Positions 10,576-30,786 of a stretch of 64,000 nt of DNA are shown here, in pieces. This DNA comes from Octopus vulgaris. Lineage: Eukaryota. Positions within the stretch are counted from its first letter, which is position 1. Each line of letters opens with the position of its first letter. The translations under genes were made by a program, and so were the position numbers. The notes under the pieces are model-generated. The model ran no database searches. It saw only the letters and a list, made by a program, of their open reading frames with translations, and was not told where the DNA came from. The stretch is taken from positions 90,396,001-90,460,000 of the forward strand of contig OX597815.1 in assembly GCA_951406725.2 (NCBI GenBank), given 5' to 3'.

Positions 10576-10896
10576 TGCCGGCCAAGTAGTGTGGAGCGAC
10601 TGACCTCCCTTGTTCAAAGGTTATATGGATACAGTTTGTGTATCAAATAGCTAACTTAAGGCGATGGCCTCATGGAGCTAATGAGCGGACAGCTTTATTC
10701 TTATTTTTATAAGAATGCCATATTAGTATGGTGATAACTATTATTTTCCGGGAACGCTGCCGTTGTTCTCTTTTAGAGAAACTAAGTAATTTTAATATTT
10801 CTATTATTGAAAACAAGTGGGTGTATTCCACCGAAGCTAGGTAAATAAAACCTTTGAACAGAGATTGTCAGAAGCGACACCTACTGGTCTGGCTAC

Positions 10897-10938
10897 GCTG
10901 CATTGAAAAGGGGCAATACCCCGAAACGCGTCTGTAGC
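10897..10938 (+). ncRNA. Type I minimal HHR, U3-A8 core, palindromic stem III
   Basis: gctgca-TTGAAAA-gggg(caata)cccc-GAAA-cgcg-TC^tgtagc, predicted cut after 10932. Confidence 0.8.
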
Positions 10939-11259
10939 TGCCGGCCAAGTAGTGTGGAGCGACTGACCTCCCTTGTTCAAAGGTTATATGGATACGGTTT
11001 GTGTATCAAATAGCTAACTTAAGGCGATGGCCTCATGGAGCTAATAAGCGGACAGCTTTATTCTTATTTTTATAAGAATGCCATATTAGTATGGTGATAA
11101 CTATTATTTTCCGGGAACGCTGCCGTTGTTCTCTTTTAGAGAAACTAAGTAATTTTAATATTTCTATTATTGAAAACAAGTGGATGTATTCCACCGAAGC
11201 TAGGTAAATAAAACCTTTGAACAGAGATTGTCAGAAGCGACACCTACTGGTCTGGCTAC

Positions 11260-11301
11260 GCTGCATTGAAAAGGGGCAATACCCCGAAACGCGTCTGTAG
11301 C
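11260..11301 (+). ncRNA. Type I minimal HHR, U3-A8 core, palindromic stem III
   Basis: Identical to 10897-10938, predicted cut after 11295. Confidence 0.8.
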
Positions 11302-12329
11302 TGCCGGCCAAGTAGTGTGGAGCGACTGACCTCCCTTGTTCAAAGGTTATATGGATACAGTTTGTGTATCAAATAGCTAACTTAAGGCGATGGCCTCATG
11401 GAGCTAATAAGCGGACAGCTTTATTCTTATTTTTATAAGAATGCCATATTAGTATGGCGATAACTATTATTTTCCGGGAACGCTGCCGTTGTTCTCTTTT
11501 AGAGAAACTTAGTAATTTTAATATTTCATATATATATATATATATATATATATATATATATATATATATATATCATATATATATATATATATATATATAT
11601 ATATATATATATATATATAATGTCACATCACTCCTAGTGCGCTGGTGCTAACATGTAACCAGTCTGACACATGGTCCGGCCATCGGCGTCTAAACCAGCG
11701 ACCCGAAAATGCATGCTTAGTAAGCAGGGTGGTTTTTGTTGAACACCCTGCAGGATGAAACGCAAAGAATAAAATGAACGGCTAATGAACCATCGGGAAT
11801 GATGGAACCCTAGCTGATGTTACACCATTATTCCAGGGGAGGGATTCTAATGTAAAACGTGGTTTCGTGACATTACAAGTTATCTGTGTTCAGACTGTCA
11901 CTAGGTACTAATCAGAGACTCAGAGAGAGTTACTCTCATTGTAGAATCGTTTATTACTATAATTCACAGACGTACAGGTGTTTATTGATGGTGATCTAAT
12001 TAGAGTCCATCTACCGAAAGCGCCACGCTGTTGGAAGAACAGTGACTTGTGCAGGCCTTACCCATGAACCAGTGAGAAGTTTGAAGTTGAGTCAAAACTT
12101 TGATGGAGCAACCGCTACACATACACACGCACACACACTCGCACACACGCACACACGCACAAACACACATAAACATACACGTATACACTCCCATATACAT
12201 ACAAACATACGTATATGTATATGTATATGTATATATATATATATATATATATATATATATATATATATATATATATATATATGTATATATATATTATCTA
12301 TTTTATCTATATGGACCAGAGTATTTGAT

Positions 12330-12900
12330 ATACTTTGCTGATCAAAATGCACTTCTAATCCTTTCTTGTATTCGCCATTCTTTTCTTTCTTGGACCAAAT
12401 TATTTTACCAAACCTTTTTCCTACCATCGGGCTGAGTCCCTCCGAGTAGCCTTCTTAATACCCTGAATTTTAGTCGGTAATTGCACTTGTCACTCTTTTA
12501 TCTGTGAACATGGCGACACGTACAACATCATGAAAATTGTACTTTCGTCACTGCAACGACGTCGTTTCCTCCACTACATTATCGAATCACCATATTTTTT
12601 GTATACTTTCGCGATGGTATTCCTTCCATGGATTATTTCATGGCCCTTTGTGTTGTAGTCGCAGTACTCTCTTCGTGCTGTAGCTGTTCTTCTGTTTTCG
12701 TAGTATCCCGCATATTACTTGCGTATAAGGCCGCAGGCCGGACAGAGCTAGAGAGGATTATGGCATATAGGGGCACGTTCACGTTTGCCTCGGGAACAAC
12801 TTTTCTTGAGTTTTAAATGCATTCCATTCTGCTTTTATACGCCTAGACTTTGCCAGCTTTCTCGTTTCTTAAATGGATAAAGCAAAAGTAGCCGCAATAT
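12330..12900 (-). mobile_element. Degenerate RTE-clade LINE fragment
   Basis: Translates SRRIKAEWNAF, SSVRPAALYASNMRDTTKTEEQ...TTQRAMK*SMEGI and RVAMFTDKRVTSAITD. These resemble RTE SRRIRAGWxAF, TVLPAMLYASETW...QRAMERSMLG and HVARxxDxRWT. Confidence 0.65.
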
Positions 12901-27165: not shown

Positions 27166-27249
27166 TTTCAAAATCTAAAATATAATCAAAATTTTTAAGA
27201 TATAAATAATATATATAATCTAGTGTGTATATATATTTATATATATATC

Positions 27250-27680
27250 CTTTTATCCTTTTACTTGTTCCAGTTCTTCCACTGCAGCTATGCTGGAGCA
27301 CCGCCTTTAGTCGAACAAATCGACCCCAGGACTTATTCTTTGTAAGCCTAGTACTAGTTCTATCGGTGCCTTTTACCGAACTGCTAAGTTACGGCGGCGT
27401 AAACACGCCAACATCGGTTGTTATGCGATGGCTGTGGAACAAACACAGACACACAATTACATATATGCGTGTGTGTATGTATATATGTATTTGTGCGTAT
27501 GCATATATATATACGATACGACGGGCTTCTTTAAGATTCCATCTATCAAATCCAGTCATAAGGCTTTGATCAACATGAGGCTATAAGTAGAAAGACACTT
27601 GCCCAATGTCCCACAGAGTGGGACTGAACCCAGAACCATGTGGTTGGGAAGCAAGTGTCTTACCACGCAGCCACTCCTAC
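27250..27680 (-). mobile_element. tRNA-derived SINE with internal microsatellite and CR1-like tail
   Basis: Head gtaggagtggctgcgtggtaag...gggttcagtcccac; tail ggcggtgctccagcatagctgcag. Confidence 0.8.
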
Positions 27681-30433
27681 ATACATATATATGTACATAT
27701 ATAAATACGTTTATACGTGCTTGCTTGTTTATATACACACTCACATAGACACACAGAACACACACACGCACACATATATTTGTGGATACAGGACATGAAC
27801 ACTTGTATAGATATATGTATATACGCTGATTCATACATGTACATGTGAGATTTTTGCGCTGTGTAATTAATTTACTATGTTTAGTCATAGGGTCATTTAT
27901 GTCATTTCATTCATATGAATCATCGTTTTTTATGCTATATTTAGTAAATGAAGCATACTGGCTTGAAACTCTTTGACTCAAGTTTCTATCGTATAGATTC
28001 ATATTTGCAGGGAAAGGATAAAGCTCTTAATATGAAAAGATGATAAATAACTGATAGAACAATAAATAGCAGCCGGTAATCTTGCAATTCAGATTCCATT
28101 TTTTAATAAATGGAATGATTATAATATTGATGTTGACTTAGTGGCTCTGAAATTATCTACTGAGATTTTTGAATTATTATTTTGACTCGTGGGGAAAAAT
28201 ATCCGGACATACATAATAGTGATTCCTAATTTCCATTAATGTAACTTTTACAAATTGCATTCTAACAATGTTCCCCTATAGTAATTAGAATTCTGTTGTA
28301 AGAGAGCCCCATTAATTAAAATGTGAGTTAAATGTTTGTTGCCTCAAAATCTGTCTTCTTTTGTTTTAAAGAATCATACAGAAAAATATTCAAATGCATA
28401 TTCTAATTTTTCCTATATATTACCAATTATACACACAGCATTTTTTACATTAATGTGATCGACTCAGCTGGGTACGAAACCACTCTTTTTGTTACTAATC
28501 TAACTTACAAGACATGCTGGTTAATTTGCCCTGCATAATTGTGAATTATTTCACTAATATAACATGTATGAGAAGACAAATGGAATATGGCAAAATGGAA
28601 TTCTAGTTAATAACCTAGTAAAAACACTCACACTGCGATGATGTGAGATATTCTAATGAAGGTTATAATACCGATTGCGTGCCAAATTTCGCTCTACATT
28701 CAAATAAAAAGACAATCAATATAAAATTGAATAACATGGTTGAAATTGTTCTCACCAGATCGATATTTTAAAGTATCCAGCTTCGTGCTTTGGTGGCATG
28801 TTTCTTTGGAATTTAAAAAAAAATGCATATTGTCCTCATTTTAAAGAATGTGTAATTTCTGTTCAGAGAAATTTTCCAGCTAATTTCAGCAATCGCTTAA
28901 TCTCTCCTGACAAACCAATCTATCGAGTTTGTTTCTCTTCGTAAATAAAATGCATCATAAAGATCTCCCCATTAAGCAAAATCACCAGGTTAGCGTCACT
29001 CTGTAAATACAGGAAGCATGCTAGCTTCATTTCTGCAAACAATATAACTAAGTTACCTTCCCTCCAACAATGCAAGCTACCAATTTAGCATACATATACA
29101 AACTCTGTTAATTCTTTTACAAGTCTCCCAGCAGAAAAAAATAATTAATCGGGTCATCAAACAGTATTAATAAAGAATTGAAAAACAGCCATAAGAAATC
29201 GATTATATTATGAAGATTGTGAAGAGAACTTCAATGCCGGAGAAAAAAATCGCAAGTTTCAATTCTAGTCACGAAATATATCTTATGAGTAAGAAGTAAT
29301 ACAATGTGGTGTTTCAGAGAATAACACTAACTCGATTATTTCAACTTATTGATTAATTAACTCTTTAGAATGATTATCATATTGAATTATTGATGAGGAA
29401 ATAAGTTTGATTGTAAAAATAGAATAATTACGAAAAACATAATTTGTTGTTTTTTTCCTCACTCTAACTGCAAGGAATAACTTTACTTTTTATTTTGATT
29501 TTATTTTAATTTTAGCTGCATAATTCCTCTCAACGATTTCTAATAATAACAATATATTATATATTCAGAAATATCTAATAGTTTTTCTTGTATTTTTTAG
29601 TGCTTATGTTTGTAAAAAATATGTCTTGCTATGTATTTGCATATATTTGTGAGTCTATGTATTTGCATAGCTTTCTGAGTGACTGTCTACGCGTCTGTAT
29701 GTAAGTATACATACATGTATTTGTGTTTGTGTGTGTGTTTGTGTGTGTAAGAATGCGTTTTTACCATTATGTATGTATAGTAGGTACATGTTTTTTCGAA
29801 AATATATGACATCGCTCCTACGTGAAGTACTGTCCAAGGAATGTTGAAAAACATAACCAACATCTTCAGGATTTTTTTATGTAAGTGCGTGAAAATTTTG
29901 TAGTACTCTCGTTATTGTATTTTTATGCATTCCTTATTATTTTTTTATATGAATTCATTCACATATATATATATATATATATATATATATATATATATAT
30001 ATATATATATAGATAGATAGATAGATAGATAGATAGATAGATAGATAGATAGATAGATAGATAGATAGATAGATAGATAGATAGATAGATAGACAGATAG
30101 ATATATAAATTGATAGATAGACAGATTGATAGATAGGTGCAGACTCACAAAAGATTCATGAATATATGAATATTTATGCATGTGTATGTACGTATATATG
30201 TTTATGTAAATAAATATATATATATATATACGTGTATATATATATATATATATATATATGTATATATCGTGACGTATTTTTGCCATTTCAATATGGCTAA
30301 CCCCTAAGGGTGGATGCTACTGTAGTTTTTAGCCCCAGGAGGACACACTCCTCCAGCTGGCCATAGACACACTTTCTGTGTCCTGTCAGTATTTGCAAAG
30401 GGAAGTCATCCTTCCCGTCTTCAACTTATGATA

Positions 30434-30478
30434 CACACGGACTCGAGTTTCGAGGTATTGACCTCTCGTCAGCGTGTG
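30434..30478 (-). ncRNA. Type I hammerhead ribozyme, canonical core
   Basis: cacacg-CTGACGA-gaggt(caat)acctc-GAAA-ctcgag-TC^cgtgtg. Stem I is 6 bp, stem II is 5 bp, and stem III is the palindrome ACTCGAGT. Confidence 0.9.
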
Positions 30479-30786
30479 ACAATCATAGTTGTCGCCGAGA
30501 GTTAGACCTCCTTCACAAATACTTATACTTTTTCCAGCGCCCACTGTCGCTGATATTGAAAAAGTGAAATCAAACAATGATAAATATCAAAGTGAGTTAT
30601 ATACAGTAGCGGTAACACATCGTGACGTATATTTGCCATTTCAATATGGCTAACCCCTAAGGGTGGATGCTACTGTAGTTTTTAGCCCCAGGAGGACACA
30701 CTCCTCCAGCTGGCCATATACACACTTTCTGTGTCCTGTCAGTATTTGCAAAGGGAAGTCATCTTTCCCGTCTTCAACTTATGATA

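Follow-up and report, generated by a model that had tools for sequence, protein, structure and literature searches.

The 64,000-nucleotide stretch of Octopus vulgaris DNA analyzed here (the window: NCBI GenBank assembly GCA_951406725.2, contig OX597815.1, positions 90,396,001 to 90,460,000 of the forward strand) carries two insertions of tandem hammerhead ribozyme repeats, A and B, both of them young subfamilies within a single old superfamily. We consider it rather probable that this superfamily consists of non-coding hammerhead repeats with a covarying multi-helix fold, and that they are copied into (TA)n by the reverse transcriptase (RT) and GIY-YIG endonuclease of a Neptune-type Penelope-like element (PLE) that recognizes the fold. 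An earlier note on this DNA, with whose unit lengths of 363 nt (A) and 353 nt (B) ours agree, had put its two arrays under one span, positions 10849-30523 of the window; what lies there is a pair of unlinked, independent insertions, 19 kb apart. No sense open reading frame (ORF) of 90 aa occurs within the units.

A and B are 51% identical, and BLASTN of one against the other returns a match of 20 nt only (E 2.8). Their global alignment scores 162 against 76±11 for 500 dinucleotide shuffles, all of which fall short of the real score; the earlier note had called the two diverged homologs. From the 3' arm of the rod to hairpin H4 (helices are named below) the z-score is 7.9 (0/500 shuffles), for the rod with its hammerhead it is 3.7 (1/500), and over the last ~100 nt it is 1.6 (32/500), which for this pair falls short of significance. 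The same genome yielded another seven subfamilies (A2, B2, B3, C1, C2, A3 and A4) via chance neighbors and 600 kb of DNA sampled at round coordinates, with 20-30 loci each for A2, B2, B3, C1 and C2 and one each for A3 and A4; the nine subfamily units span 350-364 nt at pairwise identities of 48-91%. A first look at the organism's own 2.8 Gb genome gave 1339 candidates for A and 2260 for B on many chromosomes, and those scored (40 for each) were mostly 95-100% identical to A or B. The sampled 600 kb held 7 superfamily insertions, which extrapolates to roughly 33,000 genome-wide (Poisson range ~13,000-67,000). Two profile matches in the sampled DNA (L210:3050-3430 and L247:9330-9720) were dropped from this count, being short inverted pieces (64 nt of the B-type H3/H4 region) inside another repeat that, with its TC start and its hairpin and CTAG end, we take to be Helitron-like. 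In sequencing runs X1-X20, under seven organism codes, 0.56-0.79 of the words of the B unit are found, so near-identical copies exist beyond one label.

Folded singly, the nine sequences share one order of helices: an upstream hairpin P0, a rod with the hammerhead, hairpin H1, a helix P2 with an inner hairpin, a long closing helix P3 around hairpins H3 and H4, and hairpin H5. P3 is unformed in the single A4 copy. Linear folds of A and B have z-scores of -5.9 and -4.3 (60 shuffles each), and the downstream folds of the nine sequences range from -1.1 to -4.9. On the plus strand of A, the rod, a predicted extended helix I, spans 10849-10985 and is followed by H1 (10990-11007), P2 with its inner hairpin (11011-11043), P3 (11048-11126), which closes a multiloop with H3 (11060-11079), H4 (11080-11095) and the first of two fixed 3' ends (~11107), H5 with the tail to the second fixed end (11130-11170; hairpin 11130-11142, end ~11170), and the P0 that precedes the next rod (11180-11194). 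On the minus strand of B, the first copy of the rod lies at 30741-30876 and the second at 30388-30523, with P0 at 30535-30552; the downstream helices (30282-30382 overall) are H1 (30367-30382), P2 with its inner hairpin (30330-30363), the 5' strand of P3 (30316-30324), H3 (30300-30311) and H4 (30282-30297), and the P3 of the first copy is formed by 30669-30677 and 30602-30610. Much of this had already been recognized: all four rod ends quoted earlier are present (10849-10860 with 10974-10985; 30510-30523 with 30388-30401), as are the inner pairs, hairpins and collinear motifs described with them, while P0, P3, H3 and H5 had been missed. Some details require amendment. The inner gaggtc is not a family feature, being private to the copy at 30505-30510 (gagatc in the other B copy, GAAATC in the family consensus); the collinear tgacctccctt and tgacttccctt, placed downstream of the rod, are its own 3' arm; and caat, present in the stem II loops of A and B as claimed, is not invariant, with CAACAA in A2, CAAAG in C1 and AAATAA in C2. 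The rod base of B1-B3 and C1 (window 30391-30399) bears an octamer-like word, TTTGCAAAT, confined to these subfamilies; A and C2 have GTTCRAAGG-like words instead.

Selection acts on the fold beyond the hammerhead itself, as the earlier note had proposed, and this is borne out by covariation against column shuffles, by a tree-simulated null and by fixed differences between subfamilies. RNAalifold, applied to a sequence-only alignment of nine real copies, yields 69 pairs, 42 with two-sided change, and misses P3, H3 and H5, helices whose register differs between the A and the B/C sequences. Outside the rod and hammerhead, 15/28 pairs carry two-sided change, against 6.9±1.7 in column shuffles (0/500) and at most 4 in slid controls, and in the rod 18/28 do, against 10.6±1.7 (0/500); the consensus structure behind both counts derives from the same alignment, and two independent tests were therefore added. 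For the first, pairs were taken from A1 alone and the null was simulated on the tree (200 simulations). With A1 and B1 only, double changes are paired in 7/10 cases downstream and 7/8 in the rod, fractions that 10/200 simulations reach in each case, so that the compensatory changes originally claimed from A and B alone are marginal; support for them comes from the further subfamilies, the changed cells of five distant subfamilies being still paired at 0.50 against 0.32 downstream and 0.57 against 0.33 in the rod (0/200 for each). The second test was run on fixed differences between close subfamilies, where alignment is unambiguous. From A1 to A2, 2 pairs are broken against 11.8 expected and 4 are compensatory against 0.7; from B1 to B2 the figures are 9 against 16.2 and 3 against 0.8, and from B2 to B3, 6 against 23.3 and 7 against 1.9, with the reverse comparisons concordant save one. 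Singleton or private mutations strike paired and unpaired sites equally in 4/4 families (A2, B3, B2 and C2). Fixed differences thus spare pairs and private mutations do not, which argues for selection on the copied templates and not on inserted DNA: the fold is selected for in the master sequences alone, and inserted copies decay neutrally.

The insertions themselves carry a recurrent footprint. Insertion A is built of two arms back to back between (TA)n tracts. Its inverted arm (9868-10461, minus strand, running 10461 to 9868; ~1.6 units) is 5'-truncated at unit position 308 and terminates at fixed site 1, here position 175 after the cut site, with the (TA)n tract of the target microsatellite (9747-9870) at its 3' end. 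Its forward arm (10453-11527, plus strand; ~3 tandem 363-nt units) begins at unit position 244, overlaps the inverted arm by 12 nt and finishes at position 232, close to the second fixed site (site 2, 235-238), with a (TA)n tract at 11528-11619. Insertion B (30266-30880, ~1.7 units of 353 nt) is a single minus-strand arm running 30880 to 30266, 5'-truncated at unit position 266 and terminating at fixed site 1 (position 174), with TA-rich tracts on both sides. Across 163 loci of seven subfamilies, two sites account for 223/251 3' ends (103/251 at site 1, 120/251 at site 2 and 28/251 elsewhere), and 159/251 abut TA. Site 1 lies 165-182 nt after the cut site, with modes of 171-176 in the seven many-copy subfamilies, ~15 nt past H4 within the P3 multiloop; site 2 lies 45-63 nt beyond site 1, past H5. 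Two arms are present at 88/163 loci. Where both of their ends fall at a site, 56/63 use one of each (half would be expected), and for A1 and B1 together, whose queries favored neither end, 22/24 two-armed insertions do so. Opposite arms of the same locus differ at 12/367 polymorphic cells in A1, 0/24 in B1, 27/358 in B3 and 30/185 in A2, as against between-locus differences of 0.32, 0.42, 0.32 and 0.26, respectively, the comparison being uninformative in the old families B2, C1 and C2. Arms longer than one unit are common (33/46 in A1, 24/33 in B1), and arm junctions are scattered, mostly with 1-7 nt of overlap. The pattern fits one circular or multimeric template that was copied from each of the two cut strands; gene conversion between the arms at a later time could account for their similarity as well. 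An inverted copy with a tail at one end is a PLE hallmark (PMC8557442), and two RT start sites define the tail of a Poseidon PLE in vitro (PMC11167929).

The type I hammerhead of A (10897-10938, plus strand, parsed manually) has a U3:A8 core UUGAAAA, stem I GCUGCA/UGUAGC, stem II GGGG/CCCC and a palindromic stem III ACGCGU, and its predicted cut falls after 10932 (after 11295 in a second intact copy); the inverted arm holds one intact hammerhead (cut after 10406) and another (10072-10045) with a 2-nt loss in stem III. A parse of the A core as an insertion variant (CUG-CAUU-GA) was dropped when the relative A2 revealed a U3:A8 covariant of C3-G8. The type I hammerhead of B (30434-30478, minus strand) has a C3:G8 core CUGACGA and a palindromic stem III, ACUCGAGU, with a predicted cut after 30440 and, in the first copy (30787-30831, minus strand), after 30793. 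It matches Rfam RF00163 (Hammerhead_1) at 32.2 bits (E 6.5e-6), just below the gathering threshold of 34; at gathering thresholds Rfam gives no match anywhere in the window, and the A hammerhead has none even at E<=1. Stem III is palindromic in 8/9 subfamily sequences, in six distinct sequences, the exception being a single genomic copy. Both the short palindromic stem III, explained as dimeric hammerhead cleavage, and U3-A8 covariation, in Schistosoma PLE hammerheads, have been reported (PMC4209133). Unlike the hammerheads of that work and RF00163, those of the octopus combine four core types (C3:G8, U3:A8, U3.G8 and a CCGAUGA core) in one homologous superfamily, on a 50-bp rod. Self-cleavage of A and B is predicted.

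Other hammerhead-like motifs were encountered along the way. Two copies of a minimal motif with a CCGACGA core and short palindromic stem III (9617-9643 and 18349-18375, plus strand) lie in a repeat that ends near (TA)n, and these are probably 3' ends of another Penelope-type family. A third motif (31053-31086, plus strand), just past the TA tract adjoining B, has a 7-bp stem II and an AAAUUU palindrome and lacks stem I. Elsewhere in the genome, a TA-ending repeat unrelated to A and B (L204:4030-4270, L217:450-740) has a hammerhead with a ~60-nt stem II loop and a palindromic stem III. Decayed frames in the window (16438-16803, 37055-38347 and 55526-55909) seem to resemble long interspersed element (LINE) RT/endonuclease and a mariner-type transposase.

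The size of their units, the tandem array and the type I hammerhead mark A and B as retrozymes without long terminal repeats (LTRs), or non-LTR retrozymes, a class of tandem non-coding repeats of 170-400 nt with type I hammerheads (PMC7229834). The superfamily belongs to this described class and is probably a non-autonomous PLE: its 350-364 nt tandem non-coding units have one type I hammerhead each, are dispersed at high copy number and lack LTRs, and its insertions have two fixed 3' ends, 5' truncation, an inverted 5' arm and a TA bias like that of Neptune families. A plant LTR retrozyme (LTRs, type III hammerhead, primer-binding site and polypurine tract, 4-bp target-site duplication) is excluded by the type I topology and the tandem units ending in (TA)n. 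Nor do the units look like a tRNA-derived short interspersed element (SINE), with its tRNA head bearing A and B boxes and its LINE-like 3' tail: general Rfam scans, with no dedicated tRNA scan, gave no tRNA match, and the GTTCRA word is not kept in the B/C1 subfamilies. The suggestion that this is an undescribed system is not supported, given the match to non-LTR retrozymes (PMC7229834), a class already linked to PLEs (bioRxiv 10.64898/2026.07.22.740005), and the PLE insertion anatomy; since the class is known, the gain is mechanistic and not a new system.

The octopus units resemble the metazoan non-LTR retrozymes of PMC7229834 in size (350-390 bp in mussel), in having one type I hammerhead per unit, in their thousands of copies and strong self-pairing, and in co-existing with PLEs. 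Those retrozymes are presented with per-species minimum free energy folds and sequences termed species-specific, whereas the octopus superfamily has an architecture that covaries across subfamilies; the accessible text of that paper reports no covarying cross-family architecture, two fixed ends or two-armed insertions, and circles, shown there, are a prediction from sequence for A and B. The mussel retrozymes might have the same fold. Vertebrate retrozymes (bioRxiv 10.64898/2026.07.22.740005) likewise co-occur with PLEs, by which their mobilization has been inferred. Many of their families match a pseudo-LTR (pLTR) by sequence, whereas none of the octopus Neptune pLTRs examined matches, and the accessible text of that preprint, unlike the present data, includes no structural covariation or end analysis. 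With endonuclease-positive (EN+) Neptune PLEs (PMC8557442) A and B share 5' truncation, partial tandems, an inverted 5' copy, a one-end tail, the (TA)n bias and a hammerhead in the repeat, and with the PLE of PMC11167929 two RT start sites, located there in a stem-loop downstream of the hammerhead. They differ from EN+ PLEs in having no ORF, a tail of 45-63 nt as opposed to 30-40, and a unit that is conserved fold in its entirety. Within the accessible literature, a scope outside of which lie subscription papers and the supplement of PMC7229834, no covarying architecture common to retrozyme families is described, and neither 'ribozyme' nor 'retrozyme' occurs in the accessible text of an octopus repeat annotation (PMC13282606). 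What we did not find in print is a conserved fold placed around two start sites and without a counterpart in the autonomous pLTRs examined.

A candidate mobilizer is at hand. The genome holds young PLEs with a 781-aa frame comprising an RT (RVT_1) and, at its C terminus, a GIY-YIG domain, and the CxxxxCxxC linker identifies these as Neptune-type by the motif of PMC8557442. Three Neptune families have ends at two sites before (TA)n, and the Nep1 and Nep2 hammerheads have a U3:A8 core. At L058:1270-1290 (G000:C17) a young B1 5' end is directly joined to an inverted piece of young Nep2 ORF, and at L165:880-1300 (G000:C10) an older B2 5' end is directly joined to a co-oriented ORF piece of an older Nep2 relative. 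These age-matched junctions are candidate mixed-template insertions and suggest, from two loci, that the Nep2 lineage supplies the enzyme. Two other associations were rejected as pLTRs: at L107 a B-like piece lies 1.3 kb beyond the ORF of a PLE, and at L079 an A-like piece lies close to a second such ORF, but each is a separate insertion past the PLE's own end. In the 3' untranslated region (UTR) of the 781-aa Neptune family (L091-L098), tandem blocks with ATTGG and TGACGTC words, presumably CCAAT-box and cAMP response element (CRE)-like, precede the hammerhead, and an extra open frame of 359-479 aa lies upstream of the RT frame; the Nep2 3' UTR (L172:4010-4280) contains, inside the element, a long (CAT/CTT)n microsatellite that differs in length from copy to copy.

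A number of observations weigh against mobilization of the superfamily by a fold-recognizing Neptune enzyme. On the side of the fold, the shuffle-based counts depend on a structure from their own alignment, the downstream signal of the tree test is weaker with B1 as reference (4/200 and 12/200), the compensatory excess from B2 to B1 reaches p=0.07 only, and a strand-asymmetry test on changed cells is null (G.U 22 against A.C 19, p=0.38). On the side of the enzyme, the examined Neptune families have pLTRs with AT-rich sequence behind the hammerhead and with ends at different distances (~69/110, 57/95 and 138/170), and the superfamily profile has no match in them, so that a shared 3' end of the kind seen in SINEs is absent. 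A search for an autonomous partner whose pLTR is homologous came up empty across 30 loci with GIY-YIG, 21 extended regions, 29 loci related to Nep2 and 15 of the older Nep2 relative, and the direct junctions number two. As to the RNA itself, none of the runs X1-X20 in which units occur is on record as RNA (A units are patchy in the contigs of X5 and X12), and 8/9 Xenopus retrozyme dimers showed no cleavage in vitro (bioRxiv 10.64898/2026.07.22.740005).

These points bear first on what the fold is for. It is conceivable, if on balance unlikely, that class and mobilizer are as proposed and that the fold serves the RNA's own life, through internal promoter elements, the holding of ends for ligation or nuclease resistance of the circle, with the RT starts set by nothing more than local AT-rich pairing to (TA)n. 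Indeed, none of the autonomous pLTRs examined shows a counterpart of the fold, the rod directly extends helix I of the hammerhead and closes the cut ends, both fixed ends lie at AT-rich words, and retrozyme circles are generally highly self-paired (PMC7229834). Yet the distance between the cut and site 1 holds at 171-176 nt across seven subfamilies despite differing local sequence, initiation in PMC11167929 occurs at a stem-loop that lacks homology to the target, and the octamer-like word is found in B1-B3 and C1 alone. Recognition by the RT/endonuclease is our best guess for the job of the fold because of this constancy of site 1, after H4 and inside P3.

A second alternative, to which we assign a low probability, holds that the units are detached pLTRs of an unsampled or extinct autonomous PLE family, with the fold being the normal structure of its pLTR. 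In Xenopus, 24/57 retrozyme families match known transposable elements, 21 of them PLE termini (bioRxiv 10.64898/2026.07.22.740005), and our survey scored 150/6136 GIY-YIG candidates, a small part of the PLEs of the genome. On the other hand, the fetched flanks of retrozyme loci have no upstream ORF, save the two junction fragments, and unit length stays at 350-364 nt across 50% divergence, as would be expected of an independent lineage of small RNAs. Such an origin is compatible with the mechanism we propose and lowers its novelty.

We regard it as very improbable that the compensatory changes arose by template switching that repaired quasi-palindromes, during reverse transcription or DNA replication, and not by selection on an RNA fold. 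These elements do routinely form inversions, some old copies (L159, L149) have the 5' arm of the rod replaced by the complement of its 3' arm, junctions are somewhat enriched in that 3' arm (31/124 against ~19), and one of the G.U/A.C tests is the null result given above. However, compensation is also seen in hairpins of 5-6 bp and in the long-range helices P2 and P3, non-compensated breaks are depleted too, and rods retain bulges and 7-16 G.U pairs per unit. In Watson-Crick-only folds, moreover, 1x1 loops favor G.U over A.C by 13 to 2 (the families are not independent), which points to the sense RNA; consensus alignment energy does not separate the strands for the nine sequences (-61.6 against -61.7) and gives -69.9 against -58.0 for five lineages. 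Least credible of all is a structured non-coding RNA co-opted by the host, or else a viroid-like RNA-to-RNA replicator of a categorically new kind, for which deep structural conservation and a 383-nt contig in the possibly-RNA run X5, equal to one B unit plus overlap and spanning its head-to-tail joint, might speak, since genomic copies decay regardless of pairing, no antisense ribozyme was found, the insertions bear a PLE footprint, and tandem DNA would give the same contig from a run that is not on record as RNA.

With Neptune-type copying of a recognized fold as the preferred reading, the following cycle may be envisaged. A tandem array would be transcribed, and two hammerheads would pair via the palindromic stem III, cut, and release a ~355-nt monomer, whose ends, held by the rod, would be ligated to a circle that as a monomer could not cut again. 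The PLE protein presumably cleaves the two strands of a (TA)n tract and begins reverse transcription at the sites that the footprint marks, site 1 ~175 nt after the cut inside the P3 multiloop past H4, and site 2 past H5. The two cDNA arms, as the insertions attest, mostly derive from one and the same template variant, are often longer than one unit and are joined head-to-head by short microhomology. Beyond this, we offer tentatively, and as a possibility we ourselves doubt, that ~355-nt ribozyme circles have long parasitized Neptune enzymes through a purely structural domain (H1-P2-P3/H3/H4-H5) without sequence kinship to the enzyme's own pLTR, the fold setting the two RT starts so that a protein dimer copies a single circle off each of the two cut strands and makes one arm at each site.

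Were this true, trans-mobilization by PLEs would have in this domain its first defined cis element, and PLE-based DNA writing a compact template. The question it addresses is how animal retrozymes are recognized and copied; so far, their mobilization by PLEs has been deduced from joint occurrence and from similarity to pLTRs, and recognition of RNA by PLEs has been mapped in a single element. A superfamily that is 50% divergent, with one covarying fold and two start sites fixed within it, supplies natural variants and precise mutations for in vitro study of RT recognition, circle templating and two-strand priming.

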